A DNA stretch of 64,000 bases from Escherichia coli (GTDB taxonomy: Bacteria > Pseudomonadota > Gammaproteobacteria > Enterobacterales > Enterobacteriaceae), in NCBI RefSeq assembly GCF_003334405.1, contig NZ_QOWM01000002.1; one strand, given 5' to 3'. The first letter of the stretch is position 1. Each line of letters begins with the position of its first letter. Positions 16,258 to 63,520 of this stretch are shown here, piece after piece. Both the position numbers and the translations under genes were made by a program. The notes beneath the pieces are model-generated. The model was not told the DNA's origin. It worked only from the letters and a program-made list of their open reading frames with translations, and searched no databases.

Positions 16258-16364
16258 AGCCGTTTCCTTTTTATAATCACGACATAAGGAATATAAAAAT
16301 GGCAGAGGGAAGGGAAAAGGGAAAGAGAAAAATCTTAAGGCCAGCCGGATGCTGACCTTATTTG

Positions 16365-16583
16365 TTAACGTTCAATAATTTGCGAAACATCATCACGGTT
16401 AATTTGCATCGCGTTACCTTGCTGATCGTGATAACTCACCAGCCCGGTATCATCATCAATTTCAGGTTTTCCATCGGTCAAAATCATACGGCCATCTTTG
16501 GTCGCCATGACGTAATCACTGGAACACCCGGAAACAGCAAACGCCAGTCCGACTGCAGAAATTATTACTGCCCATTTTTTCAT
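16365..16583 (-). CDS. ygdR: DUF903-family lipoprotein
   Basis: 72 aa; signal peptide plus lipobox (VSGC); paralog of YgdI at 44489-44716. Confidence 0.88.
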
Positions 16584-16720
16584 CCGGTTATCCTCATTTG
16601 GCCTACCTATGATAATAGTCTGTTTATAAACCGACGTTATATATCTTGAAAGCAGGAAAATCTTAAACTGTGAGGGTAAAAGGAGTGAGTACGCCCTCCC
16701 GCAGGAGAGCGTACGGAGTA

Positions 16721-17434
16721 TCAGAGCGGATTCTTTTTGTTGCGAATCAAGTTGAGGCTTTCAACCGCAATAGAGAAGAACATCGCGAAGTAGATGTAAC
16801 CTTTCGGTACGTGGATGTCGAAACTTTCCAGAATCAGGGTAAAGCCCACCAGAATCAGGAAAGAGAGCGCCAGCATTTTTACCGAAGGATGGCGTTCGAC
16901 AAAATCACCAATCGAGCGCGCGGCGAACATCATCACGCCTACGGCAATCACCACGGCTGCCATCATAATAAACAGGTGATCTGACAGACCCACAGCCGTA
17001 ATCACCGAGTCGAGGCTAAAGATAATATCCAGCAGCATAATCTGCACGATAGCGCCGAGGAATGATGAAACGCGTGTTTTCAGCCCTTCTTCTTCACCTT
17101 CAATGGATTCGTGGATTTCCTTGCTGGCTTTCCAGATAAGGAACAAGCCACCCAGAAGCAGAATCAAATCACGGGCAGAAATTTCCTGACTGAATATTGT
17201 AAAAAGCGGATTTGTCAGGCGCGTAACCCAGGCGATTGATGCCAGCAGCGCCAGACGCATAACCATGGCTCCCGCCAACCCCAGACGGCGCGCATGAGCA
17301 CGTTGTGCTGTGGGAAGCTTTGCCACCACCAGAGAAAGGAAAATAATATTGTCGATCCCAAGAACGATCTCCAGCAGCGTCAGCGTACCGAGCGCAAGCC
17401 AGGCGTTAGGATCGGTTATCCATGCAAATAACAT
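16721..17434 (-). CDS. ygdQ: TerC-family inner-membrane protein (UPF0053)
   Basis: 237 aa polytopic membrane protein. Confidence 0.9.
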
Positions 17435-17502
17435 CTAAAAAGCCCTGCCAAAAAAATGAAGCGGTAATTATATGCCCGGAAAGCGGCAGGTCAAAGCGAT
17501 GG

Positions 17503-18192
17503 CTACTGGATCAGAAAATGACGGGCCAGTAGTGCACTGGTGAAATTCTTCTTCAAATAAAAGCCGCGTGGCAGCGTCAGAATCCGTTCGCCCCGGGCAC
17601 CAATGGCTTCGGTAAGCGCTTTCGCATTCGCTGCTTTCGGTCGTATCTGTAAATACTCCCCGTGACGAGCGGTAATCCGCTCAACCTGACCGAGAACAAT
17701 CATATCCATTAATTCTTCCCAGTCTTCGCGTAGCTGCCGGTCTTCCTCTTCATTCGGGCTCCACAGCAACGGTGATCCAACGCGACGCTGCGCCAGCGGG
17801 ATGCTGCGCTCGCCTTCAACCGGTATCCACAGTACGCGTTTGAGTTTGTGGCGCACGTGGCTGGTTTCCCAGGTCACCCCGCTATTGCCCGTTAACGGGG
17901 CAACACAAACGAATGTTGTTTCCAGCGGACGACCAAGACTATCCACAGGGATAGTTTTAAGTTCCACGCCCAGAGCAGCAAAATCTTGCTCAGGTTTACT
18001 CCCTGCGCTGGCACCTAGCCAGATCTCCAGTAACACGCCAATCCAGCCTTTATCGCGTTTTAAATTCTCTGGCGTAACCAGCCCGACAAGTGCCGCCAGT
18101 TCTCCCAATGTATAACCAGAAAGTTGCTGTGCTTGCGCTAACAACTGTTCTTCAGTTTCGGGAGGAGAGAGCAGTGGGCGAGGTTGGGACAT
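17503..18192 (-). CDS. mutH: DNA mismatch-repair endonuclease MutH
   Basis: 229 aa; full-length match to MutH. Confidence 0.95.
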
Positions 18193-18377
18193 GTCATGAT
18201 ACCTTGATTAAAAAACAAACAGCAATTATGTGCCGAATATTCGCAGTGTAACTTTTTCCACATGCGTTGTTCAATTCTCTGATTTATATTGCTTTTTAGG
18301 TTGCCGGTAATCGAGTTGCGCAACACTGCAACGGGTTTTCCAAATCTGGTCACTGAAAATAAACAGGATCTTACACC

Positions 18378-18524
18378 ATGTTATCCACAGAAAGCTGGGA
18401 TAACTGTGAAAAACCTCCACTACTGTTTCCATTTACAGCCTTGACGTGCGACGAAACTCCAGTTTTTAGTGGTTCAGTGCTTAACTTAGTGGCACATTCT
18501 GTGGATAAATACGGCATTGGTTGA
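18378..18524 (+). CDS. ygdT: Small hypothetical ORF (48 aa), possibly ygdT; lies inside the DnaA-box region
   Basis: ATG 18378 to TGA 18522-18524 (MLSTESWDNCEKPPLL...); no convincing RBS; a consensus DnaA box sits at each end, so coding status is doubtful. Confidence 0.3.
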   Translation: MLSTESWDNCEKPPLLFPFTALTCDETPVFSGSVLNLVAHSVDKYGIG

Positions 18525-18751
18525 TCTTTCGCCAACCCGTAAATGAGAGGTGTGACCTGGGTCACGAATTACTCTTTTTCATTACTAAAATTACATGTAA
18601 TGCATTGACTGATAATGAATATTTTAAAATGTCTATATCGGGCTTATTCAGAATGCTCCGGGTTTTCCCGTAGTAATTCCGTAGTTCTTCACAACTCTAT
18701 CCACAGAAAAGGTGAATAAAAACGGCTATCCACCCCTTCCTCTGTTTATAA
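18381..18751. promoter_or_regulatory. DARS2-like DnaA-reactivating region: cluster of DnaA boxes in the mutH-rppH gap
   Basis: Perfect TTATCCACA at 18381-18389 (+) and TGTGGATAA at 18500-18508 (-); CTATCCACA at 18697-18705, CTATCCACC at 18726-18734 and TGTTTATAA at 18743-18751 are near-consensus. DARS2 is reported in the mutH-ygdP(rppH) intergenic region. Confidence 0.6.
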
Positions 18752-18876
18752 CTCTGCACATAACTGTGAGTTATTCAATTGTTATTAGTGTGTAATGCCC
18801 TGCAGAGAGTGGTTTACCGTCTTCCTGGAGTATGAAACAATCATTCGTATATAAAGCTTTATTTTGAGGTAGTCCG

Positions 18877-19407
18877 GTGATTGATGACGATGGCTACCGC
18901 CCAAACGTAGGTATCGTGATTTGTAATCGCCAGGGGCAGGTAATGTGGGCCCGGCGATTTGGTCAGCACTCCTGGCAATTTCCGCAAGGCGGAATCAACC
19001 CCGGAGAATCCGCAGAGCAGGCGATGTACCGTGAATTGTTTGAAGAAGTAGGATTAAGCCGCAAAGACGTTCGAATCCTTGCTTCAACGCGTAACTGGTT
19101 GCGCTACAAATTACCGAAACGTTTGGTGCGTTGGGACACGAAGCCGGTTTGTATCGGCCAAAAACAAAAATGGTTTCTCTTGCAGCTGGTGAGCGGCGAT
19201 GCAGAAATCAATATGCAAACCAGCAGTACACCAGAGTTTGACGGCTGGCGATGGGTAAGTTACTGGTATCCGGTCAGACAGGTGGTGTCATTTAAACGTG
19301 ATGTCTACCGTAGGGTAATGAAAGAGTTCGCGAGTGTGGTGATGTCACTGCAGGAAAATACGCCAAAACCACAAAACGCATCTGCTTATCGACGTAAAAG
19401 AGGTTAA
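18877..19407 (+). CDS. rppH: RNA pyrophosphohydrolase (Nudix)
   Basis: 176 aa, GTG start; Nudix box [23 protein letters not shown]. Confidence 0.94.
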
Positions 19408-19419
19408 GTCACGCCAATT

Positions 19420-21666
19420 ATGCTCACTCGCCTGCGCGAAATAGTCGAAAAGGTAGCCAGCGCACCACGCCTGAATGAGGCGTTAAATATTCTGGTTACC
19501 GACATCTGTCTTGCGATGGATACCGAGGTCTGTTCGGTCTACCTGGCCGATCATGATCGACGTTGTTACTACCTGATGGCGACCCGGGGGCTGAAAAAAC
19601 CACGCGGTCGCACTGTAACGCTCGCGTTTGATGAAGGGATCGTCGGCCTGGTTGGCAGGCTGGCGGAACCGATAAACCTTGCAGATGCGCAAAAGCACCC
19701 CAGCTTCAAATACATCCCCTCCGTAAAAGAAGAACGTTTCCGCGCGTTTTTAGGCGTACCAATTATTCAACGTCGCCAGTTGCTTGGTGTACTGGTGGTA
19801 CAGCAACGAGAGTTGCGCCAGTATGACGAAAGTGAAGAATCCTTCCTGGTGACGCTTGCCACCCAGATGGCAGCTATTCTTTCTCAGTCGCAGTTGACTG
19901 CCTTGTTTGGGCAATATCGCCAGACGCGAATCCGCGCATTACCGGCAGCACCTGGTGTGGCGATTGCCGAAGGCTGGCAGGATGCCACGTTACCTTTAAT
20001 GGAACAGGTGTATCAGGCATCAACGCTGGATCCGGCTCTGGAACGCGAACGACTGACCGGGGCGCTGGAAGAAGCGGCAAACGAGTTTCGCCGCTACAGC
20101 AAACGCTTTGCCGCCGGTGCACAAAAAGAAACGGCGGCTATTTTCGATCTTTACTCGCACCTGCTTTCGGACACCCGGCTGCGTCGCGAATTGTTTGCCG
20201 AGGTTGATAAAGGCTCGGTGGCAGAGTGGGCGGTAAAAACGGTCATTGAAAAATTTGCCGAACAGTTTGCCGCGCTAAGTGATAACTATCTCAAAGAGCG
20301 GGCTGGCGATTTACGTGCGCTGGGTCAGCGATTGCTGTTTCATCTTGATGACGCTAATCAAGGGCCGAACGCCTGGCCGGAACGTTTCATTCTGGTGGCA
20401 GATGAACTGTCAGCGACAACGCTTGCTGAGCTGCCCCAGGATCGCTTAGTCGGTGTTGTCGTGCGAGATGGCGCAGCCAACTCCCATGCTGCGATCATGG
20501 TACGTGCGCTGGGGATCCCTACCGTGATGGGCGCGGATATTCAGCCTTCGGTGCTGCATCGTAGGACGCTGATCGTTGATGGCTATCGCGGTGAATTGCT
20601 GGTCGATCCGGAGCCGGTACTGCTGCAAGAATATCAGCGGCTAATTAGTGAAGAGATTGAGCTTAGCCGTCTGGCGGAAGATGACGTCAATTTACCCGCG
20701 CAGTTAAAAAGCGGTGAGCGTATAAAAGTCATGCTCAATGCTGGTTTAAGCCCGGAACATGAAGAAAAACTGGGCAGCCGTATTGATGGCATCGGTCTTT
20801 ATCGCACTGAAATCCCATTCATGCTGCAAAGTGGTTTCCCGTCGGAAGAAGAACAGGTGGCGCAGTATCAGGGGATGCTGCAAATGTTCAATGATAAACC
20901 CGTCACCTTGCGTACGCTGGATGTCGGAGCAGATAAGCAGCTGCCTTACATGCCGATCAGCGAAGAGAATCCATGCCTGGGTTGGCGTGGGATTCGCATT
21001 ACGCTCGATCAGCCGGAGATCTTCTTGATCCAGGTGCGGGCGATGCTGCGTGCTAATGCCGCTACGGGCAACCTGAATATTCTGTTGCCGATGGTCACAA
21101 GCCTCGATGAAGTTGATGAAGCACGCCGCCTGATTGAACGTGCCGGACGTGAAGTCGAGGAGATGATCGGTTACGAAATTCCCAAACCACGTATCGGCAT
21201 CATGCTGGAAGTGCCGTCAATGGTATTTATGCTGCCGCATCTGGCAAAGCGGGTCGATTTCATCTCTGTTGGCACCAACGATCTGACTCAATACATTCTG
21301 GCCGTTGATCGCAACAATACCCGGGTGGCGAACATTTATGACAGTCTTCATCCTGCAATGTTACGAGCTCTGGCGATGATCGCCCGGGAAGCGGAAATAC
21401 ATGGAATCGATCTCCGTTTGTGCGGTGAAATGGCGGGCGATCCCATGTGCGTGGCAATCCTCATTGGGCTTGGGTATCGCCATCTGTCTATGAACGGACG
21501 TTCTGTAGCGCGGGCAAAATACCTGCTGCGGCGCATTGATTATGCCGAAGCAGAAAATCTTGCGCAGCGTAGTCTGGAAGCGCAACTGGCGACCGAAGTT
21601 CGCCATCAGGTTGCAGCCTTTATGGAGCGTCGCGGCATGGGCGGGCTGATTCGCGGAGGGTTATAG
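19420..21666 (+). CDS. ptsP: PEP-protein phosphotransferase enzyme I-Ntr (GAF domain + enzyme I)
   Basis: 748 aa; N-terminal GAF, C-terminal PEP-utilising enzyme domains; 12 bp after rppH. Confidence 0.94.
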   Translation: MLTRLREIVEKVASAPRLNEALNILVTDICLAMDTEVCSVYLADHDRRCYYLMATRGLKKPRGRTVTLAFDEGIVGLVGRLAEPINLADAQKHPSFKYIPSVKEERFRAFLGVPIIQRRQLLGVLVVQQRELRQYDESEESFLVTLATQMAAILSQSQLTALFGQYRQTRIRALPAAPGVAIAEGWQDATLPLMEQVYQASTLDPALERERLTGALEEAANEFRRYSKRFAAGAQKETAAIFDLYSHLLSDTRLRRELFAEVDKGSVAEWAVKTVIEKFAEQFAALSDNYLKERAGDLRALGQRLLFHLDDANQGPNAWPERFILVADELSATTLAELPQDRLVGVVVRDGAANSHAAIMVRALGIPTVMGADIQPSVLHRRTLIVDGYRGELLVDPEPVLLQEYQRLISEEIELSRLAEDDVNLPAQLKSGERIKVMLNAGLSPEHEEKLGSRIDGIGLYRTEIPFMLQSGFPSEEEQVAQYQGMLQMFNDKPVTLRTLDVGADKQLPYMPISEENPCLGWRGIRITLDQPEIFLIQVRAMLRANAATGNLNILLPMVTSLDEVDEARRLIERAGREVEEMIGYEIPKPRIGIMLEVPSMVFMLPHLAKRVDFISVGTNDLTQYILAVDRNNTRVANIYDSLHPAMLRALAMIAREAEIHGIDLRLCGEMAGDPMCVAILIGLGYRHLSMNGRSVARAKYLLRRIDYAEAENLAQRSLEAQLATEVRHQVAAFMERRGMGGLIRGGL

Positions 21667-21816
21667 CGCGGATCATATACATATCTTTTAACGGTATCCG
21701 GCAACCAGCCAGGTCCCCTTGTGCTATTATTCGCACCTTTGGAGCGCCTGAAACCTGCGGCGCGCATTTCAATCGCTGTTCTCTTTCAGCGAAATAACAA
21801 GAACTTGTGGTGACAG

Positions 21817-22692
21817 ATGACCAGTAGCTATCTGCATTTTCCGGAGTTTGATCCGGTCATTTTCTCAATAGGACCCGTGGCGCTTCACTGGTACGGCCTG
21901 ATGTATCTGGTGGGTTTCATTTTTGCAATGTGGCTGGCAACACGACGGGCGAATCGTCCGGGCAGCGGCTGGACCAAAAATGAAGTTGAAAACTTACTCT
22001 ATGCGGGCTTCCTCGGCGTCTTCCTCGGGGGACGTATTGGTTATGTTCTGTTCTACAATTTCCCGCAGTTTATGGCCGATCCGCTGTATCTGTTCCGTGT
22101 CTGGGACGGCGGCATGTCTTTCCACGGCGGCCTGATTGGCGTTATCGTGGTGATGATTATCTTCGCCCGCCGTACTAAACGTTCCTTCTTCCAGGTCTCT
22201 GATTTTATCGCACCACTCATTCCGTTTGGTCTTGGTGCCGGGCGTCTGGGCAACTTTATTAACGGTGAATTGTGGGGCCGCGTTGACCCGAACTTCCCGT
22301 TTGCCATGCTGTTCCCTGGCTCCCGTACAGAAGATATTTTGCTGCTGCAAACCAACCCGCAGTGGCAATCCATTTTCGACACTTACGGTGTGCTGCCGCG
22401 CCACCCATCACAGCTTTACGAGCTGCTGCTGGAAGGTGTGGTGCTGTTTATTATCCTCAACCTGTATATTCGTAAACCACGCCCAATGGGAGCTGTCTCA
22501 GGTTTGTTCCTGATTGGTTACGGCGCGTTTCGCATCATTGTTGAGTTTTTCCGCCAGCCCGACGCGCAGTTTACCGGTGCCTGGGTGCAGTACATCAGCA
22601 TGGGGCAAATTCTTTCCATCCCGATGATTGTCGCGGGTGTGATCATGATGGTCTGGGCATATCGTCGCAGCCCACAGCAACACGTTTCCTGA
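21817..22692 (+). CDS. lgt: Phosphatidylglycerol-prolipoprotein diacylglyceryl transferase
   Basis: 291 aa polytopic; Lgt signature region. Confidence 0.94.
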
Positions 22693-22698
22693 GGAACC

Positions 22699-23493
22699 AT
22701 GAAACAGTATTTAGAACTGATGCAAAAAGTGCTCGACGAAGGCACACAGAAAAACGACCGTACCGGAACCGGAACGCTTTCCATTTTTGGTCATCAGATG
22801 CGTTTTAACCTGCAAGATGGATTCCCGCTGGTGACAACTAAACGTTGCCACCTGCGTTCCATCATCCATGAACTGCTGTGGTTTCTGCAGGGCGACACTA
22901 ACATTGCTTATCTACACGAAAACAATGTCACCATCTGGGACGAATGGGCCGATGAAAACGGCGACCTCGGGCCAGTGTATGGTAAACAGTGGCGCGCCTG
23001 GCCAACGCCAGATGGTCGTCATATTGACCAGATCACTACGGTACTGAACCAGCTGAAAAACGACCCGGATTCGCGCCGCATTATTGTTTCAGCGTGGAAC
23101 GTAGGCGAACTGGATAAAATGGCGCTGGCACCGTGCCATGCATTCTTCCAGTTCTATGTGGCAGACGGCAAACTCTCTTGCCAGCTTTATCAGCGCTCCT
23201 GTGACGTCTTCCTCGGCCTGCCGTTCAACATTGCCAGCTACGCGTTATTGGTGCATATGATGGCGCAGCAGTGCGATCTGGAAGTGGGTGATTTTGTCTG
23301 GACCGGTGGCGACACGCATCTGTACAGCAACCATATGGATCAAACTCATCTGCAATTAAGCCGCGAACCGCGTCCGCTGCCGAAGTTGATTATCAAACGT
23401 AAACCCGAATCCATCTTCGACTACCGTTTCGAAGACTTTGAGATTGAAGGCTACGATCCGCATCCGGGCATTAAAGCGCCGGTGGCTATCTAA
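22699..23493 (+). CDS. thyA: Thymidylate synthase
   Basis: 264 aa; conserved catalytic-Cys region ([13 protein letters not shown]). Confidence 0.96.
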
Positions 23494-23514
23494 TTACGAA
23501 ACATCCTGCCAGAG

Positions 23515-23541
23515 CCGACGCCAGTGTGCGTCGGTTTTTTT
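23515..23541 (+). terminator. Rho-independent terminator after thyA
   Basis: Stem CCGACGC/GCGTCGG, loop CAGTGT, then a 7-T run. Confidence 0.75.
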
Positions 23542-23676
23542 ACCCTCCGTTAAATTCTTCGAGACGCCTTCCCGAAATTTTGCAACGTCCTGCAACGGCG
23601 TAAATAGTCCGGAAGATGCGCCGAAGAAATAGAAACTGGCCCTCGTCTTTTTTTCTCCTCGCTCCATACTGCCGGC

Positions 23677-24147
23677 ATGAAAACACAACGTGGTTATACG
23701 CTGATTGAAACGCTGGTCGCGATGCTGATTTTGGTCATGCTAAGCGCAAGTGGACTCTATGGCTGGCAATACTGGCAGCAGTCGCAACGGCTATGGCAAA
23801 CCGCCAGCCAGGCGCGGGACTATTTGCTCTATTTACGTGAAGATGCCAACTGGCATAACCGCGACCACAGTATCAGCGTTATCAGGGAGGGGACGTTATG
23901 GTGCCTTGTGAGTTCCGCTGCTGGGGCCAATACCTGTCATGGCAGTTCACCATTGGTCTTTGTGCCACGCTGGCCCGAAGTCGAAATGAGCGACCTGACA
24001 CCTTCGCTTGCTTTCTTTGGCCTGCGCAATACCGCATGGGCCGGGCATATTCGCTTCAAAAACTCAACGGGCGAGTGGTGGCTGGTGGTTTCGCCGTGGG
24101 GAAGACTCCGGCTTTGTCAGCAAGGAGAAACAGAAGGATGCCTGTAA
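23677..24147 (+). CDS. ppdA: Prepilin peptidase-dependent protein A (pseudopilin-like)
   Basis: 156 aa; N-terminal prepilin-type methylation motif ([13 protein letters not shown]). Confidence 0.88.
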
Positions 24148-24701
24148 AAGAGCAAGGTTTTTCTCTGCTGGAAGTGTTGATTGCTATGGCGATCAGTAGC
24201 GTATTGTTGCTGGGGGCGGCACGCTTTCTGCCTGCGTTACAGCGTGAAAGTTTAACGAGCACCCGTAAGCTGGCGCTGGAAGATGAAATCTGGCTGCGGG
24301 TATTTACCGTCGCGAAGCATCTCCAGAGGGCGGGTTATTGTCATGGCATCTGTACCGGCGAAGGGCTGGAAATTGTCGGACAGGGTGACTGTGTCATTGT
24401 GCAGTGGGATGCGAACAGTAACGGTATCTGGGATCGCGAACCGGTAAAAGAGTCCGACCAGATTGGATTTCGTCTGAAGGAGCATGTGCTGGAAACGCTA
24501 CGCGGTGCGACATCCTGTGAAGGTAAGGGCTGGGATAAAGTCACTAATCCGGATGCCATCATTATCGACACTTTTCAGGTCGTACGTCAGGATGTCAGCG
24601 GCTTCTCGCCGGTGTTGACGGTTAATATGCGTGCTGCCAGTAAGTCTGAACCGCAAACCGTGGTGAATGCCAGCTATAGCGTGACAGGATTCAACCTGTG
24701 A
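24138..24701 (+). CDS. ppdB: Prepilin peptidase-dependent protein B
   Basis: 187 aa from ATG 24138 with GGAG RBS (track ORF is extended from 23898); prepilin motif [13 protein letters not shown]; overlaps ppdA. Confidence 0.85.
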
Positions 24702-25105
24702 ACCGCGAAAAGGGTGTTTCGTCACTGGCTCTGGTCCTGATGCTGCTGGTTTTGGGTAGTTTGCTATTACAAGGAATGAGCCAACAGGATCGCAGTTTTG
24801 CCTCTCGCGTGAGCATGGAAAGTCAGTCATTGCGCCGCCAGGCCATCGTTCAGTCGGCGCTGGCGTGGGGAAAAATGCACTCCTGGCAGACGCAGCCAGC
24901 AGTTCAGTGCTCGCAGTACGCTGAAACCGATGCCCAGGTTTGTTTGCGTTTACTGGCAGATAATGAAGCCTTATTGATTGCCGGTTATGAAGGCGTTTCG
25001 TTGTGGCGAACAGGCGAAGTCATTGATGGAAACATTGTTTTTTCGCCACGCGGCTGGAGCGATTTTTGTCCGCTGAAAGAGAGGGCGTTATGTCAGCTTC
25101 CCTGA
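24698..25105 (+). CDS. ygdB: Pseudopilin-like protein YgdB
   Basis: 135 aa, GTG start overlapping the ppdB stop; hydrophobic N-terminus. Confidence 0.8.
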
Positions 25106-25413
25106 AGAATCAACAAGGCTTTAGCCTGCCGGAGGTAATGTTGGCGATGGTGTTGATGGTGATGATTGTCACTGCGTTATCGGGTTTCCAGCGAACATTA
25201 ATGAACAGTCTTGCCAGCAGAAACCAGTACCAACAGCTCTGGCGGCATGGCTGGCAGCAAACGCAACTGCGCGCGATTTCGCCACCTGCCAACTGGCAGG
25301 TCAACCGAATGCAGACATCGCAGGCGGGATGTGTCAGCATCAGCGTTACGCTAGTTTCACCCGGGGGCAGAGAAGGCGAGATGACCCGCCTGCATTGCCC
25401 GAATCGTCAGTAG
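25090..25413 (+). CDS. ppdC: Prepilin peptidase-dependent protein C
   Basis: 107 aa from ATG 25090; prepilin motif [13 protein letters not shown]; overlaps ygdB. Confidence 0.85.
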
Positions 25414-25425
25414 TCAGGAGCCGCT

Positions 25426-28794: not shown

Positions 28795-28969
28795 GTGCTG
28801 TATAAAAATTGCGCAATCTATCCGCTTACTTTATGATGCGCACCAGTCACGGACTGATGGTTATATAAACATAGGCTGACTCGTGCAGCACAAGATTAAA
28901 TTCTGGCAGATGATTTGCGTTAACGTGTTGAATCTGGACAGAAAATTAAGTTGATTATGAGGTCCGTGA

Positions 28970-34800: not shown

Positions 34801-35393
34801 CGCAGTGGGAACCGGTATTGACCGAGTGGATCACGGCTGTCCTCCAGGCACCTCTCAATGAAACCGGCGTAAGCCTGAGTCAACTTTCCGCCCGCAATAA
34901 ACAGGTGGAGATGGAGTTTTATCTGCCGATTAGTGAACCGCTTATCGCCAGTCAGCTTGATACGTTAATCCGCCAGTTTGACCCGCTATCCGCAGGCTGC
35001 CCGCCGCTGGAGTTCATGCAGGTACGTGGCATGTTAAAAGGCTTTATCGACCTGGTGTTCCGCCACGAAGGGCGTTATTACCTGCTCGACTATAAATCCA
35101 ACTGGTTGGGTGAAGACAGTTCGGCTTACACCCAACAGGCTATGGCAGCGGCAATGCAGGCACACCGCTATGATCTGCAATATCAGCTTTATACCCTGGC
35201 GCTGCATCGTTATCTGCGCCATCGCATTGCTGATTACGACTATGAGCACCACTTTGGCGGCGTTATTTATCTGTTCCTGCGTGGCGTTGATAAAGAACAT
35301 CCGCAACAGGGGATTTACACAACCCGACCCAACGCCGGGTTGATTGCCCTGATGGATGAGATGTTTGCCGGTATGACCCTGGAGGAGGCGTAA
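31851..35393 (+). CDS. recB: Exodeoxyribonuclease V beta subunit (helicase-nuclease)
   Basis: 1180 aa from ATG 31851 ([11 protein letters not shown]...); Walker A ASAGTGKT; 8-nt overlap with ptrA. Confidence 0.96.
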
Positions 35394-37219
35394 TGAAATT
35401 GCAAAAGCAATTACTGGAAGCTGTGGAGCACAAACAGCTACGCCCGCTGGATGTGCAATTTGCCCTGACCGTGGCGGGAGATGAACATCCTGCCGTCACC
35501 CTCGCGGCGGCACTGTTAAGTCATGATGCCGGAGAGGGACACGTTTGTTTGCCGCTTTCACGACTGGAAAATAACGAGGCGTCGCATCCGCTGTTGGCGA
35601 CCTGTGTCAGTGAAATCGGTGAGCTACAAAATTGGGAAGAATGCTTGCTGGCTTCTCAAGCGGTCAGCAGGGGAGATGAACCCACGCCGATGATCCTCTG
35701 TGGCGATCGTCTTTATTTGAATCGCATGTGGTGTAACGAGCGCACAGTGGCACGCTTTTTCAACGAAGTGAATCATGCCATTGAGGTTGATGAAGCTCTA
35801 CTGGCGCAAACCCTGGACAAACTTTTTCCAGTAAGCGATGAAATTAACTGGCAAAAAGTTGCGGCGGCAGTGGCGCTGACGCGGCGGATCTCGGTGATTT
35901 CCGGCGGCCCTGGCACCGGTAAAACGACCACCGTAGCGAAGTTGCTGGCAGCGTTAATTCAAATGGCCGACGGCGAACGCTGCCGTATCCGTCTGGCTGC
36001 ACCAACGGGTAAAGCTGCCGCGCGCTTAACCGAATCTCTCGGCAAGGCTTTGCGACAGTTACCGCTGACCGATGAACAAAAGAAACGCATTCCGGAAGAT
36101 GCCAGCACTTTGCACCGATTGCTGGGCGCGCAGCCGGGTAGCCAGCGTTTACGTCATCATGCCGGTAACCCGCTGCATCTTGATGTGCTGGTGGTAGATG
36201 AAGCGTCAATGATCGATCTGCCTATGATGTCGAGACTGATCGACGCTTTGCCCGATCATGCGCGAGTGATCTTTCTCGGCGATCGTGATCAACTGGCCTC
36301 GGTTGAGGCTGGGGCTGTGCTGGGCGATATCTGCGCTTATGCCAACGCGGGCTTTACCGCCGAGCGTGCCAGGCAGCTAAGCCGCCTGACGGGGACTCAC
36401 GTTCCGGCAGGAACCGGCACAGAAGCGGCATCTTTGCGCGACAGTCTCTGCCTGCTGCAAAAAAGCTATCGTTTCGGCAGCGATTCTGGCATTGGTCAGT
36501 TAGCTGCGGCGATCAACCGTGGTGATAAAACGGCAGTGAAAACCGTTTTTCAGCAGGATTTTACTGATATCGAAAAACGGCTTTTACAGAGCGGCGAAGA
36601 TTATATTGCGATGCTTGAGGAAGCTCTTGCGGGTTACGGACGTTATCTGGATCTGCTGCAAGCGCGTGCCGAGCCGGATTTAATCATTCAGGCGTTCAAT
36701 GAGTACCAGCTTTTGTGCGCCCTGCGGGAAGGGCCGTTTGGCGTGGCTGGACTGAATGAGCGAATTGAGCAGTTTATGCAACAGAAGCGCAAAATTCATC
36801 GTCATCCGCACTCTCGTTGGTACGAAGGTCGACCGGTGATGATTGCCCGTAATGACAGCGCGCTTGGGTTGTTTAATGGCGATATCGGTATTGCGCTGGA
36901 TCGCGGGCAGGGGACGCGCGTCTGGTTTGCGATGCCGGACGGCAATATTAAGTCTGTGCAACCGAGTCGCTTGCCAGAGCACGAAACTACGTGGGCGATG
37001 ACGGTACATAAATCGCAGGGATCGGAGTTCGACCATGCGGCGTTGATTTTGCCGAGCCAACGCACGCCGGTAGTAACGCGAGAGCTGGTTTATACCGCGG
37101 TGACCCGCGCGCGTCGCCGTCTGTCGCTGTATGCCGATGAGCGCATATTAAGTGCGGCAATCGCCACTCGTACTGAGCGGCGCAGTGGTCTGGCGGCGTT
37201 GTTTAGTTCACGGGAATAA
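35393..37219 (+). CDS. recD: Exodeoxyribonuclease V alpha subunit (helicase)
   Basis: 608 aa; Walker A GGPGTGKT; TAATG overlap with the recB stop. Confidence 0.96.
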
Positions 37220-37226
37220 ACGTAAT

Positions 37227-37268
37227 TGCCGGATGCGACGTACGAGTGTTACGCATGTCGCATCCGAC
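37227..37268. repeat. REP-like palindrome between convergent recD and argA
   Basis: GCCGGATGCGACG...CGTCGCATCCGAC imperfect palindrome. Confidence 0.5.
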
Positions 37269-37280
37269 GATTTTCATCGC

Positions 37281-38612
37281 TTACCCTAAATCCGCCATCA
37301 ACACTTTGGATTTACGCTGGTAGTTGTACAACTGCTTTTTGCTCTCGGGCAGTAAATCAATATCCACTGGGGTAAATCCACGTTCCTGGAACCAGTGAAT
37401 ACTGCGCGTGGTCAGCACAAACAATTTGCTTAAGCCGCTCTGCTTCGCCTGAGCGGCAATGCGTTCCAGCAGAACTTCACCCCTTGATGAACTGCGGTAA
37501 TCCGGGTGAACTGCCACACAGGCCATTTCCCCAATCTTCTCTTCCGGGAACGGATAGAGCGCGGCGCAGGCAATAGTCGTGTTATCGCGCTGAATAATGG
37601 TGAATTTGTCGATTTCCATCTCCAGCTGCTCGCGAGAACGGCGTACCAGAATACCTTGCTGCTCCAGTGGGCGAATCAACTCCAGAATACCGCCAATATC
37701 GTTGATTGTTGCGCGACGAATCTGCTCGGCGCTTTCCATCACAATCTGCGTACCGATACCGTCGCGTGAGAACAACTCTTGCAACAGCGCGCCATCTTCC
37801 TGATAACTGATTAAATGACAGCGACGCACGCCGCTGCGGCAGGCTTTCACTGCGCCACGCAAAAAGCGCACCGTACCGGAGTTGTAATCGCCTTTCTCTT
37901 CCTGGGCTTCTACCCGCGCTTGCGCTTCGTTAGGGAAAAGTTCGGAGACAATATCACCGTCGTCATTAGTGACGCCCTGGGAAGAGCAAAAACCAATCAT
38001 CTTTTCAGCTTTCAGTTTGATGGCCAGTTGAGTGGCAATCTCTTCCGAGGTCAGGTTAAAGCTCTCGCCAGTGACTGAAACAGCGACCGGCCCCATTAGC
38101 ACTATTGCACCGCTGTCCAGTTGACGATGGATCGCGTCTTCATCAATCCGCCGGATACGCCCGCTATGGCAGTAATCCACGCCGTCATCGACGCCCAGCG
38201 GCTGGGCAATAATAAAATTGCCACTGACGACGTTGATATGCGCGCCCTGCAGCGGCGTGTTATTGAGACTCATCGACAGGCGAGCAGTAATATCCAGTTG
38301 CAATGTTCCCGCAGCCTGCTTCACCAGTTCCAGTGTTTTGGCGTCGGTCACACGTATATTCTTGTGATACAGCGGTTCGTGGTGATGCGCAGCCAGATTT
38401 GCGTCGATCTGCGGACGTGCGCCATAGACCACCACCAGACGGATGCCGAGGCTGTGCAACAACCCGATATCATTAACGATACTGGAGAAATTCTCATGCT
38501 CAATGGCTTCACCGCCGAGCATGATGACAAACGTTTTTCCCCGGTGGGTATTGATATAGGGAACCGAATGGCGGAATCCCTCGACCAACTCGGTTTTACG
38601 TTCCTTTACCAC
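37281..38612 (-). CDS. argA: N-acetylglutamate synthase
   Basis: 443 aa from GTG (minus strand, 38612-38610; [15 protein letters not shown]...); track ORF is extended to 38678; amino-acid kinase plus GNAT domains. Confidence 0.93.
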
Positions 38613-38843
38613 GGCACACCTCTTTGCATGATTATTCGAAATTAGTGTATTTTTATTCTGTTTTTTCGCAGGGTGCAAGTGTAAATTTTATGCGAGAGCG
38701 ACTTTTTTATCAGTAATGCCGTGAATATAAAAAGAATGTTTACCGTTTATTAGATGACAGATTATGCGTCTTTCGCTAAAGTTTCCGGTCAAATTAGTCG
38801 TTTACTTGTTACACAGCTTAGATTTCTTTTGCTCGGGAGAGGC

Positions 38844-40097
38844 ATGTCAGGATCCAACACTGCAATCAGCCGTCGTCGTTTACTGCAAGGCGCGGGTGCC
38901 ATGTGGCTATTGAGCGTAAGTCAGGTCAGTCTGGCTGCGGTCAGCCAGGTCGTGGCGGTGCGCGTCTGGCCTGCGTCCAGCTACACCCGCGTGACGGTGG
39001 AATCAAATCGTCAGCTGAAATATAAGCAGTTCGCGTTGAGTAACCCTGAACGCGTGGTGGTGGATATCGAAGATGTAAACCTGAACTCGGTACTCAAGGG
39101 GATGGCGGCACAAATTCGTGCAGACGACCCGTTCATCAAGTCGGCGCGCGTCGGGCAATTTGACCCGCAAACCGTACGGATGGTTTTTGAATTAAAGCAA
39201 AACGTAAAACCGCAGCTGTTTGCCCTTGCGCCGGTCGCCGGGTTTAAAGAGCGTCTGGTGATGGACCTCTATCCGGCCAATGCACAGGATATGCAGGACC
39301 CGCTGCTGGCGCTGCTGGAGGATTACAACAAAGGCGACCTCGAAAAGCAGGTGCCGCCAGCGCAAAGTGGTCCACAACCGGGTAAAGCAGGGCGCGATCG
39401 TCCGATTGTCATTATGCTTGACCCTGGCCACGGTGGCGAAGACTCCGGTGCGGTGGGGAAATACAAAACGCGCGAAAAAGATGTGGTATTGCAAATAGCT
39501 CGCCGTTTGCGCTCTCTGATCGAGAAAGAGGGCAATATGAAGGTGTACATGACGCGCAATGAAGACATCTTCATTCCATTGCAAGTGCGCGTAGCAAAAG
39601 CCCAGAAACAGCGTGCTGACCTGTTTGTCTCTATCCATGCCGACGCCTTTACCAGTCGTCAGCCGAGCGGTTCCTCTGTGTTTGCGCTCTCAACCAAAGG
39701 TGCAACCAGTACTGCGGCAAAATATCTGGCACAAACCCAGAACGCCTCGGACTTGATTGGTGGCGTGAGCAAAAGCGGTGACCGCTATGTCGACCACACC
39801 ATGTTCGATATGGTACAGTCGCTGACCATTGCCGACAGCCTGAAGTTTGGTAAAGCGGTACTGAATAAGCTCGGTAAAATCAACAAGCTGCATAAAAATC
39901 AAGTTGAACAGGCCGGGTTTGCCGTACTAAAGGCACCAGATATTCCCTCCATTCTGGTCGAAACGGCGTTTATCAGTAACGTTGAGGAAGAGCGTAAACT
40001 GAAAACGGCGACTTTCCAGCAGGAAGTTGCGGAGTCTATTCTTGCGGGGATTAAAGCGTATTTTGCCGATGGGGCGACGCTGGCGAGAAGGGGATGA
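38844..40097 (+). CDS. amiC: N-acetylmuramoyl-L-alanine amidase AmiC (Tat-exported)
   Basis: 417 aa from ATG 38844; twin-arginine signal SRRRLLQG; amidase_3 domain; track ORF is extended from 38754. Confidence 0.93.
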
Positions 40098-40100
40098 TAA

Positions 40101-40127
40101 AAAGGCGCTGAATGGCGCTTTTTTATG
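40101..40127 (+). terminator. Hairpin + T-run after amiC
   Basis: AAAAAGGCGC-TGAATG-GCGCTTTTTT; short GC stem extended by A:T pairs, then T6. Confidence 0.4.
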
Positions 40128-40140
40128 GGAGACCAGAAAC

Positions 40141-40164
40141 AAAAAAACACCCGTTAGGGTGTTC
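40141..40164 (-). terminator. Rho-independent terminator of the tRNA-fMet transcript
   Basis: On the minus strand, immediately 3' of the tRNA: ACACCC-UAAC-GGGUGU followed by U7. Confidence 0.7.
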
Positions 40165-40170
40165 AATAAT

Positions 40171-40247
<77 letters not shown>

Positions 40248-40455
40248 TCCGTGGATGCGCACTATACTCCGCTCGCGTTTTCATGCAACCTTTTTTTTAC
40301 CCCGATCACGGATTTGGCATGATTTTGAACAAAAACAAATCACTAAAGCCTATTTTTTGTGCAAAATTTGCGTCAGGGAGAGGCTGCTCATTTCATTAAA
40401 CGCGGCGGTTTGTTATCTTCGTTGCGCCTTATTTTTTAACCTGAAGAAGAGAACA

Positions 40456-41553
40456 ATGAAAGGACGTTGGGTAAAGTACCTTCTTATGGGCACGGTTGTG
40501 GCAATGCTTGCCGCCTGCTCTTCCAAACCAACCGATCGCGGACAGCAATATAAAGACGGGAAATTTACCCAGCCTTTCTCTCTGGTGAACCAGCCAGATG
40601 CCGTTGGCGCGCCGATTAACGCCGGTGATTTTGCCGAGCAAATTAACCATATCCGTAATTCGTCACCGCGTCTGTATGGCAACCAGAGTAATGTTTATAA
40701 CGCGGTGCAAGAGTGGCTGCGCGCAGGCGGTGATACCCGCAATATGCGCCAGTTCGGCATTGATGCCTGGCAGATGGAAGGTGCCGACAACTATGGTAAC
40801 GTGCAGTTTACCGGTTATTACACGCCGGTAATTCAGGCGCGCCATACCCGCCAGGGCGAGTTCCAGTATCCTATTTACCGTATGCCGCCAAAACGTGGTC
40901 GTCTGCCGTCTCGTGCGGAGATCTACGCGGGGGCATTGAGTGATAAATATATTCTCGCTTACAGTAACTCCCTGATGGATAACTTCATTATGGATGTGCA
41001 GGGTAGTGGGTATATCGACTTTGGTGATGGCAGTCCGCTTAACTTTTTCAGCTATGCAGGGAAAAACGGTCATGCCTATCGCAGCATTGGTAAGGTGCTG
41101 ATCGACCGTGGCGAAGTGAAAAAAGAAGATATGTCGATGCAGGCGATTCGTCACTGGGGCGAAACACACAGTGAAGCCGAGGTTCGCGAGCTGCTGGAAC
41201 AGAACCCGTCTTTCGTCTTCTTTAAACCGCAATCTTTTGCTCCGGTGAAAGGGGCAAGTGCGGTGCCGCTGGTTGGTCGCGCGTCAGTTGCCTCTGATCG
41301 TTCCATTATTCCGCCAGGTACTACCTTGCTGGCAGAAGTGCCGTTGCTGGATAATAACGGCAAATTTAATGGTCAGTACGAACTGCGTCTGATGGTGGCG
41401 CTGGATGTCGGTGGTGCAATCAAAGGCCAACACTTCGATATCTATCAAGGGATCGGGCCGGAAGCCGGACACCGCGCAGGTTGGTACAACCACTATGGAC
41501 GTGTCTGGGTGCTGAAAACCGCCCCGGGCGCAGGTAACGTCTTTAGCGGCTGA
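40456..41553 (+). CDS. mltA: Membrane-bound lytic murein transglycosylase A (lipoprotein)
   Basis: 365 aa from ATG 40456 (MKGRWVKYLLMGTVVAMLAACSS..., lipobox LAAC); the 508-aa track ORF reads through the tRNA and is rejected. Confidence 0.93.
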   Translation: MKGRWVKYLLMGTVVAMLAACSSKPTDRGQQYKDGKFTQPFSLVNQPDAVGAPINAGDFAEQINHIRNSSPRLYGNQSNVYNAVQEWLRAGGDTRNMRQFGIDAWQMEGADNYGNVQFTGYYTPVIQARHTRQGEFQYPIYRMPPKRGRLPSRAEIYAGALSDKYILAYSNSLMDNFIMDVQGSGYIDFGDGSPLNFFSYAGKNGHAYRSIGKVLIDRGEVKKEDMSMQAIRHWGETHSEAEVRELLEQNPSFVFFKPQSFAPVKGASAVPLVGRASVASDRSIIPPGTTLLAEVPLLDNNGKFNGQYELRLMVALDVGGAIKGQHFDIYQGIGPEAGHRAGWYNHYGRVWVLKTAPGAGNVFSG

Positions 41554-41640
41554 TGTGATATTCTGTATGCCGTTTTTACGGATATGACAGGGTGAGGGGT
41601 AACCTCACATCCTGATTATTGACTAAGTGCGCGTTGTTCA

Positions 41641-41738
41641 TGCCGGATGCGGCGTGAACGCCTTATCCGGCCTACAAATCATGCAAATCCAAAATATTGC
41701 AGGAGTTATGTAGGCCTGATAAGCGTAGCGCATCAGGC
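41641..41738. repeat. BIME: two inverted REP elements
   Basis: GCCGGATGCGGCGTGAACGCCTTATCCGGCCTAC (41642-41675) and GTAGGCCTGATAAGCGTAGCGCATCAGGC (41710-41738) in head-to-head arrangement. Confidence 0.8.
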
Positions 41739-41750
41739 ATTTATGCGTTT

Positions 41751-41777
41751 AGGGTGAGGGATAACCTCGCCCTTTTT
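41751..41777 (+). terminator. Hairpin + T5 just upstream of tcdA
   Basis: GGGTGAGG-GATAA-CCTCGCCC followed by TTTTT; could terminate mltA read-through. Confidence 0.45.
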
Positions 41778-41791
41778 AATTCTGAGGTGCT

Positions 41792-42598
41792 ATGTCTGTG
41801 GTAATTAGTGATGCATGGCGTCAGCGTTTTGGTGGCACAGCGCGTCTGTATGGTGAAAAAGCGTTGCAACTGTTTGCTGACGCGCATATTTGTGTGGTTG
41901 GTATCGGTGGTGTCGGTTCCTGGGCGGCGGAAGCGCTGGCGCGCACGGGGATTGGCGCAATCACGCTTATCGATATGGATGATGTGTGCGTCACCAATAC
42001 CAATCGGCAAATTCATGCCCTGCGCGATAACGTTGGGCTGGCAAAAGCGGAAGTTATGGCGGAGCGTATTCGCCAGATTAACCCGGAGTGCCGTGTAACG
42101 GTGGTGGATGATTTCGTGACGCCGGATAACGTAGCGCAGTATATGAGCGTGGGTTATTCGTACGTGATTGATGCCATTGATAGTGTACGGCCCAAAGCGG
42201 CGCTGATTGCTTATTGTCGGCGCAATAAAATCCCACTGGTCACAACCGGTGGCGCGGGTGGGCAGATTGATCCGACGCAGATTCAGGTTACCGATCTGGC
42301 GAAAACGATTCAGGACCCGCTGGCGGCGAAGTTGCGCGAGCGCCTGAAAAGCGATTTTGGCGTAGTGAAAAACAGTAAAGGTAAGCTCGGCGTGGATTGC
42401 GTGTTTTCTACTGAAGCACTGGTGTACCCGCAGTCAGACGGTACGGTGTGTGCGATGAAAGCCACGGCAGAAGGGCCGAAGCGGATGGATTGTGCATCTG
42501 GATTTGGCGCGGCAACGATGGTGACCGCCACCTTTGGGTTTGTTGCGGTTTCTCATGCGCTGAAGAAGATGATGGCGAAAGCGGCGCGTCAGGGTTAA
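41792..42598 (+). CDS. tcdA: tRNA threonylcarbamoyladenosine dehydratase (ThiF/MoeB-like E1)
   Basis: 268 aa; nucleotide-binding motif VVGIGGVGSWAAEALAR. Confidence 0.92.
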   Translation: MSVVISDAWRQRFGGTARLYGEKALQLFADAHICVVGIGGVGSWAAEALARTGIGAITLIDMDDVCVTNTNRQIHALRDNVGLAKAEVMAERIRQINPECRVTVVDDFVTPDNVAQYMSVGYSYVIDAIDSVRPKAALIAYCRRNKIPLVTTGGAGGQIDPTQIQVTDLAKTIQDPLAAKLRERLKSDFGVVKNSKGKLGVDCVFSTEALVYPQSDGTVCAMKATAEGPKRMDCASGFGAATMVTATFGFVAVSHALKKMMAKAARQG

Positions 42599-42606
42599 AC
42601 AATCAG

Positions 42607-42637
42607 GTCGGATGAGACGCGAACGTCTTATCCGACC
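42607..42637. repeat. REP-like palindrome between convergent tcdA and csdE
   Basis: GTCGGATGAGACGCGAACGTCTTATCCGAC. Confidence 0.55.
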
Positions 42638-42648
42638 CGGTTCTGTGC

Positions 42649-43092
42649 TTAAACCTGCTTCGTCGCAGCGATAATCGCCTCGCTTAACGCATTTAACCCC
42701 TGGCTGCGTGAGGCGCTAAGCTGCGCACGTAATCCCAGCTCATCAAACAATGCCAGTGGTGACTGTGCCTGCAACTCGGCGGCGGTTTTCCCCTCAACGG
42801 CAGTCAACAACACCGCCAGCAGGCCGCGCACAATGCGCCCTTCGCTGTCGCCAAAGAAATGCATTTTGCCGTTTTCAGCCACTGTATATCCCAGCCAGAC
42901 GCGGTTTTCGCATCCGGCAATCTCTTTAGCCTGCGCTTTTAACTCGTCTGGCAATGCCGGAAGCTGTTTCCCCAGCATGATCAACTGGCGATATTTATCT
43001 TCCCATTGCGTCAACGGTGCGAAGGTATTGCGTAACGTTTCTGCGGTTACGGTTGTGCCGAACGGATGTCCGGCGAATTGCGGGTTTGTCAT
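42649..43092 (-). CDS. csdE: Sulfur-acceptor protein CsdE (SufE-like)
   Basis: 147 aa; SufE family; start overlaps the csdA stop. Confidence 0.92.
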
Positions 43093-44297
43093 TAATCCAC
43101 CAATAATTCCAGCGCGCGGTCAACGGCATTCACCAGCGCATCCACATCACTCTTTGTATTATATGGCGCAAAAGAGGCGCGCAGTGTGCCGGTTACGCCT
43201 AATTCTGCCAGTAGCGGCTGAGCGCAATGCTGCCCGGCCCGCAGGGCAATACCGTACTCCGCCAGCAGCGTCACCATATCGCTATGATGAACGCCAGCAA
43301 AATCAAAGGCCAGCAGGCTGGAATCCTGGCAGCGGAATGAACGAAAGCCGGGACGTTTCGCCAGCGCATCTTCCGCCAGCGTTGCTAAGCTACGGCTCCA
43401 GCTTTCGGCCTGGTTGATATCGTAATCTGCCAGCCATTCCAGCGCCGCGCTTAATCCTATGACACCAGCGACATTTGGCGTTCCAGCTTCCAGTTTCCAC
43501 GGCGCAGATTGAGTCGTGAAGCCGTCAAAACTCACTTCGTGAACCATTTTGCCGCCGCCCAGCCAGGGCGACATCGCCTCCAGCAGTTCTGATTTACCAT
43601 ACAGCACGCCGATACCTGTCGGGCCATACAGTTTGTGACCTGAAAAAGCATAGAAATCAATATCCAGTTGCTGAACATCCGCGGGGAAATGCACTGCCCC
43701 CTGAGCACCATCAACCATCACCACCATCCCGGCTGAATGAGCAAAGGTAATCGCTCGCGCCAGATCCGGGCAACCGCCAGTAACGTTCGACATCTGACCC
43801 AACGCCAGAATCCGACTACGGGGAGTAATCAGTTCTGGCAACAAATCGACATCCGGCAGTCGCTGCGCATTAAGCGGCAATTTCACCACTTTGGCTCCAG
43901 TTTGTTGGGCGACCATCAGCCAGGGGACGAGGTTGGCGTGGTGTTCTGCCACGCTGACAATAATCTCATCGCCCGGTTGCAGACGCGGACGCGCATAGCA
44001 TTGTGCCACCATGTTGATGGATTCAGTGGTGCCGCGCGTCCAGACGATAGTTTTATCATCCGGTGCATTCAGTAATTGCGCCACTTTCTCTCGTGCAGCT
44101 TCATAACGCGCGGTCAGGCGTTGGGCTTCGGCAAACTGGCTGCGATGGACGTTTCCGGCGCTCAGACTGTAAAACTGTTGGGTGGCTTCAACCACGGCTT
44201 CAGGTTTAAGCGCGGTCGCGGCGCTGTCGAGATAGACGCCCGCATCCTGTAGTGCGGGAAACTGGGCGCGAAACTGCGCGGGATTAAAAACGTTCAT
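43092..44297 (-). CDS. csdA: Cysteine desulfurase / cysteine sulfinate desulfinase (class V PLP)
   Basis: 401 aa from the ATG giving [12 protein letters not shown]... (track ORF is extended by 12 codons); PLP-Lys motif FSGHK. Confidence 0.93.
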
Positions 44298-44488
44298 GGT
44301 ACTCCTCGGCTTGATGCACCGATCGTGACGCAAAATTCACTTTGATACAAGGAGAGTGCTAACCATCAGAATTATCTGGATATCCTGGCGAAGCCGCGTA
44401 AGTAACATATGCTGAATAGTGTTAGGCGTTAATTTTAGCCTGTTAATCAATACTATTAAGATTTATTAATCGCTTTAAGGAGAAGATG

Positions 44489-44716
44489 ATGAAAAAGACT
44501 GCCGCAATTATTTCTGCCTGTATGCTGACTTTTGCCCTGAGCGCCTGTTCCGGTTCGAACTATGTGATGCACACCAATGACGGACGTACCATCGTCTCTG
44601 ACGGCAAACCACAGACTGATAACGATACCGGTATGATTTCGTATAAAGACGCTAATGGCAACAAACAGCAGATCAACCGTACTGACGTGAAAGAGATGGT
44701 CGAACTGGATCAGTAA
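44489..44716 (+). CDS. ygdI: DUF903-family lipoprotein
   Basis: 75 aa from the second ATG (best spacing to the AAGGAG RBS); lipobox LSAC; paralog of YgdR. Confidence 0.88.
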
Positions 44717-44732
44717 TTCGCGATCGCAAGGT

Positions 44733-44938
44733 AAAAAAAAGCACCGCAATTAGGCGGTGCTACATTAATCACTATGGACAGACAGGGTAAATGTACAGGA
44801 AGTGAAAAAAGGTAGCTTTGCTACCATGGTCTGAATCGCAGACCAATTGCAAACACAACAACACAACATCACAACCGTAAGCCAAAAGTTCACCAGAACA
44901 CGCATTCCGATAAAACTTTTCGTTCCGGCTCAGGAAGT
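44733..44938 (-). ncRNA. gcvB: GcvB small RNA (~206 nt)
   Basis: Minus-strand sequence ACTTCCTGAGCCGGAACGAAAAGTTTTATCGGAATGCGTGTTCTGGTGAAC... with GT-rich region and terminal hairpin GCACCGCCTAATTGCGGTGC + U8; divergent from gcvA. Confidence 0.9.
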
Positions 44939-63475: not shown

Positions 63476-63520
63476 ATTCCTGCTATCCTTCGCGGCAGTT
63501 TTTCTTATTGAGGTTGCTTT

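Follow-up and report, generated by a model that had tools for sequence, protein, structure and literature searches.

Two DUF903 lipoprotein paralogs, YgdR and YgdI, in a 64,000-nucleotide stretch of Escherichia coli DNA

The two genes and their protein family

We analyzed two small genes, ygdR and ygdI, in a stretch of 64,000 nucleotides (nt) of Escherichia coli DNA (assembly GCF_003334405.1, contig NZ_QOWM01000002.1), which is referred to below as the window. An initial annotation, made from the sequence, had described them as DUF903 lipoprotein paralogs of 72 and 75 amino acids (aa), about 28 kb apart, in a family without an assigned function. Positions, lengths and public annotation agree with this description, also as regards the function. 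The genes are separated by 27,905 nt and are placed on opposite strands (Table 1). The best overall explanation is that ygdR and ygdI are what they are annotated to be, monocistronic genes of small outer-membrane lipoproteins of the DUF903 (YgdI/YgdR) family, and we regard this explanation, taken as a whole, as probable. The identity and the history of the pair are practically certain. The pair is already known, as its genes, family name, fold and stress induction can be found in RefSeq, Pfam, NCBIfam, the Protein Data Bank (PDB) and the literature.

Table 1. Positions of ygdR, ygdI and other features in the window
Feature	Position	Strand	Description
OmrA/OmrB tandem small RNA genes	11469-11550, 11665-11752		Rfam
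ygdR terminator-like hairpin	16336..16360	-	directly past the stop codon; 10-bp stem, then AGATTTTTCT; predicted by consensus scan
ygdR coding sequence	16365..16583	-	72-aa prolipoprotein; open reading frame, RefSeq name 'lipoprotein YgdR'
YgdR protein parts			signal peptide residues 1-19, lipobox VSGC, Cys20, Ser at +2, 52-aa DUF903 barrel
ygdR candidate -10 hexamer	16612..16617	-	TATTAT; read from the sequence, partly conserved between genera
ygdR candidate RcsB box	16649..16667	-	TTTAAGATTTTCCTGCTTT; conserved upstream element, promoter region
DARS2 core	18685..18719		DnaA boxes I-III; bracketed by published deletion primers; 2.1 kb from ygdR
ES036 (CssrF) small RNA	41675-41717		between mltA and tcdA; Rfam
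ygdI upstream block	44406..44421	+	CATATGCTGAATAGTG; candidate promoter -10 region
ygdI Shine-Dalgarno sequence	44477..44482	+	AAGGAG; read from the sequence
ygdI coding sequence	44489..44716	+	75-aa prolipoprotein; RefSeq start, label 'YgdI/YgdR family lipoprotein'
YgdI protein parts			lipobox LSAC, Cys20, Ser at +2, DUF903 barrel
gcvB small RNA gene	44733..44938	-	Rfam RF00022, 199 bits, full length; between ygdI and gcvA
gcvB terminator hairpin	44740..44761		AGCACCGC-loop-GCGGTGCT; T-run only in the gcvB direction
CsrB small RNA	63119-63478		Rfam

For ygdI, the mechanically called open reading frame begins one ATG earlier, at 44486, and encodes 76 aa. The Shine-Dalgarno sequence is 6 nt from the ATG at 44489 and only 3 nt from the one at 44486, while the YgdI orthologs of Yersinia and Pantoea do not have the additional N-terminal methionine. 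Therefore we consider the start at 44489 to be right.

YgdR and YgdI are true paralogs across the whole mature domain. Comparison of the full proteins with BLASTP gave 43 identical residues of 72 (60%, E = 1e-31). The mature parts alone were aligned without gaps, with 29 of 50 residues identical (58%, E = 9e-23), and similarity restricted to the signal peptide is thereby excluded. The common signal peptide, lipobox and core reported in the initial annotation were all recovered, and its core motif DGR.I..DGKP..D.DTG..SY.D..GN..QINR.DV is exact in both proteins. The lipobox occupies residues 17-20 in each of them (VSGC in YgdR, LSAC in YgdI), and its cysteine is at least 90% conserved in a family alignment of 56 sequences.

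Further, both proteins were matched end to end by the profiles of the family. Pfam PF06004 (DUF903) covered positions 1-49 of 49 with E = 2e-24 for YgdR and E = 8.7e-24 for YgdI. NCBIfam NF033216 covered positions 1-71 of 71 with 105.9 and 113.2 bits, respectively, at a curated cut-off of 42 bits. Full-length profiles, lipobox, the turns D-G, G-K-P, T-G and D..G and a length of approximately 70-78 aa characterize the family, and YgdR and YgdI differ from it in nothing. It is a small family, represented by 168 clusters (50% identity) in a set of 1.84 billion representative proteins. We found no third DUF903 copy when the window was searched with tblastn. One protein of 1125 aa (P0260) gave four weak 'DUF903' stretches in a single-sequence search; it proved to be an ankyrin-repeat protein and was rejected as a false positive.

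Conserved positions and age of the duplication

In the E. coli MG1655 order, tas, ygdR and ygdQ are read leftwards and are followed by mutH, after which come ygdT, rppH, ptsP and lgt, read rightwards; further along, csdE and csdA are read leftwards, and ygdI and then gcvA rightwards. Hardly any E. coli genome lacks either locus. A 1-kb stretch at the ygdR locus had a match in 5425 of 5426 complete genomes, and the stretch at the ygdI locus had one in all 5426. The stretch tas-ygdR-ygdQ carries an insertion of the element IS1 in E. coli strain 582 (NZ_CP120568.1, 1010794-1012570), is covered over less than 80% of its length in approximately 10 E. coli genomes, and is without a match in one.

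The two slots were also recognized outside the Enterobacteriaceae. The ygdR slot in Musicola (Pectobacteriaceae) reads ptsP-rppH and then, in a separate block, mutH-TerC-DUF903-aldo-keto reductase, and in Rouxiella (Yersiniaceae) the DUF903 gene directly follows mutH. In Pectobacterium, Yersinia and Pantoea the ygdI slot reads tcdA-csdE-csdA, the DUF903 gene, and gcvA-ygdD-rlmM. The arrangements mutH-(ygdQ)-ygdR-tas and csdA, ygdI, gcvB-gcvA are therefore fixed across several families of Enterobacterales. The proteins encoded there follow their positions: those linked to mutH share 58-67% of their residues with E. coli YgdR and 42-44% with YgdI, and for those linked to gcvB the identity is 68-85% with E. 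coli YgdI and 51-58% with YgdR. Since the slots are fixed in several families, the duplication is older than the split of these families, and neither recent nor local. Judged by family-level synteny, both slots existed before Pectobacteriaceae, Yersiniaceae and other families separated, and this placement of the two copies is one of the points added by the present analysis.

A rival reading, in which the pair arose recently within Escherichia by duplication, gene conversion or horizontal transfer, would be in agreement with the GC values of 43% and 47% for ygdR and ygdI, below the window mean of 51%, but it is hardly credible. The genes are 59.6% identical at the nucleotide level and only 36.6% identical at third codon positions, which is near saturation, both slots are kept in other families of Enterobacterales, and both genes are found throughout the species. 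We rejected a recent origin on the grounds of synteny and of the near-saturated third codon positions; of the two, synteny is the stronger argument for dating than DNA divergence. The scan of a genome collection for distant relatives was of no use for deep dating, as all 80 loci that it returned were YgdR orthologs from Enterobacteriaceae.

The two copies have changed at unequal rates. The ranges of identity between families given above (68-85% for YgdI, 58-67% for YgdR) indicate that YgdI is the slower-evolving copy, which is a further addition of this analysis. At the same time, the YgdR-type C-terminus (..Q.(I/V/M)(I/L/M)ER) is present in the Aeromonas homolog and in many distant members of the family, which suggests that YgdR retains the older form.

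The DUF903 family is prone to repeated duplication. A third paralog in Enterobacteriaceae, of the type represented by PDB 2rd1, is located between yncE and ansP in Citrobacter (L091:4001-4222). Proteins close to it bear the names of Salmonella, Kluyvera and Klebsiella, the gene context given here being that of Citrobacter. The Citrobacter copy had zero DNA matches in the 5,426 complete E. coli genomes and, as tblastn found no extra copy in the window, a third E. coli paralog was rejected. Another lineage is linked to yfaZ, a gene of an outer-membrane protein: in Pantoea (L084:4001-4843) the DUF903 gene is directly upstream of yfaZ, on the same strand and 64 nt apart, and in Proteus (L083:4001-6283) it is approximately 1.5 kb from yfaZ. 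This could hint at a connection with small outer-membrane barrels, but it is not general. On a metagenomic contig (L087:2768-4231), a tandem pair of DUF903 genes with 15 nt between them comes after mipA, and this group adjoins a two-component system and an integrase/TraI region.

Structure, stress regulation and possible role

From residue 21 to residue 72, YgdR has exactly the sequence of the constructs in PDB 2jn0 (nuclear magnetic resonance, NMR) and 3fif (crystal). The solved structures closest to YgdI are 2ra2 (E = 2e-29) and 5cai (E = 1e-27), which are YgdI orthologs, and the proteins of the window show no difference of substance from these entries. Structures of seven members of the DUF903 family have been solved in all. 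The AlphaFold2 model, built on the alignment of 56 sequences, was confident (pLDDT = 87.5) and consisted of the signal-peptide helix followed by six short strands from residue 23. The fold is the small Sm-like beta-barrel of the solved family members. It comprises 52 residues, begins three residues past the lipidated Cys20, and the mature proteins are acidic (isoelectric points 4.2 and 4.7).

This barrel topology is the one found in the RNA-binding proteins Hfq and Sm. In one alternative, the barrels would form a ring like that of Hfq at the periplasmic side of the outer membrane, where the ring would bind a polymer or a small ligand, as a functional analogue of the Sm proteins. The 6, 6, 7 and 8 chains in crystal entries of the family are consistent with a ring, but the chain counts taken together are inconsistent (1, 2, 3, 6, 6, 7, 8) and both NMR entries are single-chain. 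The sequence relationship is not detectable either, as there is no Pfam LSM or Hfq match and the identity to Hfq and Sm proteins is 4-19%. Sm proteins have an N-terminal helix that is without a counterpart here: the single helix of the model (residues 3-17) is the signal peptide, which is cleaved off. Unlike the cytoplasmic Hfq and Sm proteins, YgdR and YgdI are exported and lipid-anchored, and RNA is not expected in the periplasm. Ring formation or RNA binding by YgdR and YgdI has no evidence, and we consider such a ring improbable.

His-tagged YgdI, which served as a lipoprotein cargo of the outer membrane, behaved as an outer-membrane lipoprotein and was enriched in vesicles after peroxide treatment (PMC8284480), and the entry 'verified lipoprotein' is given in a table of PMC8767339. 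In the mechanism that we propose, the precursor would be exported by Sec, lipidated at Cys20 by Lgt, LspA and Lnt, and delivered by the Lol pathway to the inner leaflet of the outer membrane; we expect this destination because residue +2 is serine and not aspartate, according to the established sorting rule. As the tether of three residues is almost absent, the acidic barrel would lie flat on the membrane. There it could act as a small module binding proteins or the membrane surface during envelope stress. The two copies would have been retained because each of them seems to answer to a different stress regulon. The biochemical role itself, a membrane-hugging module that binds proteins, is our best guess, a tentative one of low probability. 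The gene lgt (approximately 21817-22692, plus strand), whose product adds diacylglycerol to prolipoproteins, is located between ygdR and ygdI, and this position is probably a coincidence.

For ygdR, the 80 loci from the genome-collection scan were reused for promoter footprinting. Most of the Enterobacteriaceae genera in this comparison retain the element TTTAAGATTTTCCTGCTTT, with few positions varying, while the sequence on both sides of it diverges. We take it to be a candidate RcsB box, the fit to the consensus being imperfect. Upstream of ygdI, TTATGCTGAATAGT/TTATGCTGAATATT was common to the Yersinia and Pantoea loci and little else of the intergenic sequence could be aligned; TATGCTGAATAGTG, which lies within the block at 44406-44421, was likewise common to both. 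This block is a candidate RpoS-dependent promoter of ygdI. The sequence CAATACT near 44449 was considered as the RpoS -10 element and dropped in favor of the block, because it is not conserved in other genera.

The literature is consistent with different regulons. ygdI was strongly RpoS-dependent, in Salmonella (PMC5437024, proteome) and in E. coli, as also reported in PMC6153362 and PMC5105897, and its level was lower in a cpxRA mutant of Citrobacter rodentium (PMC5437024, PMC6153362). The table of PMC5105897 lists ygdI as RpoS-induced and ygdR as induced by Rcs on cell-wall damage. Inhibition of LolCDE raised ygdI 25-53-fold and ygdR 8-12-fold, and other small envelope lipoproteins under RpoS or Rcs control, such as OsmB, OsmE, MliC and YbaY, rose with them (PMC5105897). 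These resemble YgdI and YgdR in being monocistronic, shorter than approximately 120 aa and provided with a lipobox; their folds and sequences are unrelated, and the likeness is in behavior only. The target of MliC is lysozyme, while none is known for YgdI and YgdR.

Several points weigh against the explanation given above. Both genes were induced together not only by LolCDE inhibition (PMC5105897) but also by a rapid acid shift (PMC2270276) and after cathelicidin, so that a clean regulatory subfunctionalisation is not proven, and the RcsB-box assignment is tentative. The biochemical role is supported by no direct evidence: no ligand or partner of YgdI or YgdR is reported in the papers examined, a literature search by PDB and Pfam codes gave no relevant functional or oligomer study, and none of the nine gene contexts examined contained a conserved operon partner. 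A general operon partner was rejected as the contexts differ (mutH/TerC, csdA/gcvB, yfaZ, mipA with a tandem copy, yncE/ansP and unrelated genes in Aeromonas). As for the history, the dating relies on synteny at the level of families, both copies in one genome were seen only within Enterobacteriaceae, and neighbor-joining on 52 residues left the YgdR-type sequences without a clean clade.

The same joint induction, together with a mature identity of 58% and a common fold, is what would be expected if the copies were functionally redundant, serving as back-up or dosage of a generic stress lipoprotein with no division of labor, and no single-mutant phenotype has been reported beyond one transposon screen. 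We consider redundancy rather unlikely. In several families of Enterobacterales each copy has stayed in its own fixed slot, the two change at different rates, their upstream elements are separately conserved and unrelated to each other, and the literature places them in different regulons. The family is very conserved, stress-induced and structurally solved, and its function is a useful question. The observation of the pair is correct and ordinary, and of small value as a discovery.

Neighboring regulatory elements

The initial annotation had placed each gene beside a regulatory RNA or DNA element. This holds for ygdI, which abuts gcvB in an arrangement conserved across Enterobacterales, and less so for ygdR, which is separated from DARS2 by two genes and approximately 2 kb. 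The DnaA-box region referred to there is real. The deletion primers of PMC4585315 were mapped to 18720-18769 (MutH-9) and 18635-18684 (MutH-10), on the two sides of the DARS2 core. Perfect DnaA boxes TTATCCACA were found at 18381 and 18500 (span 18381-18508); both are inside ygdT, an annotated open reading frame of 48 aa, and the DARS2 core is approximately 200 nt further toward rppH. The distance from the region to ygdR is 1.8-2.1 kb, with ygdQ and mutH between them, so 'near' was generous. The core of the initial annotation was correct and the neighborhood was over-read. Evidence of a functional link was found in neither case.

Such adjacency is nothing unusual in the window, which has four small-RNA genes besides gcvB. 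Approximately 10 of its roughly 55-60 genes flank one of five elements (omrA/B, DARS2, ES036, gcvB and csrB), therefore one of two genes would do so about one time in three, and at this density of small RNAs a gene next to one is unremarkable. gcvB and DARS2 beside the pair are a matter of conserved synteny, and not demonstrated partners.

The arrangement of ygdI and gcvB was analyzed further. The two genes are convergent, and gcvB ends 16 nt past the ygdI stop codon. The terminator scan called the hairpin at 44740-44761 on the minus strand only. The hairpin forms in plus-strand RNA as well, where A8 precedes it and ACAUUAAU, a weak U-tract, follows. Between the ygdI stop codon and the end of this hairpin (44717-44761), ygdI lacks a terminator that is its own; the hairpin, which is the gcvB terminator read in reverse, is the earliest stable one past the gene. 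The convergent order is kept with a gap of 6 nt in Pantoea, 87 nt in Pectobacterium and 150 nt in Yersinia. That ygdI without its own terminator faces gcvB across Enterobacterales is the third point added here, and it is a caveat for phenotypes of ygdI insertions.

We also assessed pairing of the small RNAs with the translation start regions by RNAduplex, as z-scores against 200 dinucleotide shuffles, a crude measure that ignores intramolecular structure. Neither GcvB (z = +0.74 for ygdI, z = -0.26 for ygdR) nor OmrA/B (z of approximately -1.5 to -1.6 for ygdI, -0.1 to -0.6 for ygdR) paired with these regions above the shuffled controls. ygdI and ygdR were therefore rejected as target mRNAs of GcvB or OmrA/B, as far as start-region complementarity is concerned.

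The remaining alternative is that the neighboring elements are functional, that is, that ygdI transcription enters the terminator and the gene of gcvB and modulates GcvB by collision or antisense, or the reverse, and that ygdR is likewise tied to DARS2. It is very unlikely in our estimation. The geometry would allow it, as gcvB is so close past the stop codon and its terminator, with a weak U-tract toward ygdI, is the only downstream hairpin; ygdI is induced by RpoS and the convergent order is kept in Pectobacterium, Yersinia and Pantoea. However, with a gap between 6 and 150 nt tight overlap is not conserved, and in one relative ygdI is beside csdA while gcvB is absent from the 311 nt downstream. 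Genetic data point in both directions. Transposon insertions in ygdI, and also in hfq, were advantageous under trimethoprim and sulfamethoxazole (PMC8767339), which could reflect an effect on the Hfq-dependent GcvB, connected by way of GcvA with glycine and one-carbon metabolism. Against this, deletion of ygdI did not copy the acid-resistance phenotype of a gcvB deletion (PMC2676305), and a cat cassette in ygdI is a routine neutral marker linked to gcvB (PMC3879156). The pairing scores do not favor the coupling, and neither does the distance of 2.1 kb, behind ygdQ and mutH, that separates ygdR from DARS2.

The conserved convergent pair with its single asymmetric terminator is the only mildly new angle, and the chance that it is functionally important is slim. 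The specific form of the proposal, in which RpoS-driven read-through from ygdI across the shared terminator, in stationary phase or under envelope stress, would lower GcvB by collision or antisense pairing, is likewise very unlikely. If true, a lipoprotein gene of the envelope-stress response would be connected with the regulon of amino-acid transport, and the phenotype of ygdI insertions under antifolates would be an effect on gcvB. Apart from read-through, the geometry offers a polar effect on gcvB as an alternative reading of the transposon phenotype, which the authors of PMC8767339 did not address. Insertion or deletion alleles of ygdI may disturb gcvB, and the reverse.

Finally, the window contains a single copy of tRNA-Met at 40171-40247 (minus strand), compared with three tandem copies in MG1655 (metZ, metW and metV), a difference of 220 nt. 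Because of this copy number, the strain of the window differs from MG1655.

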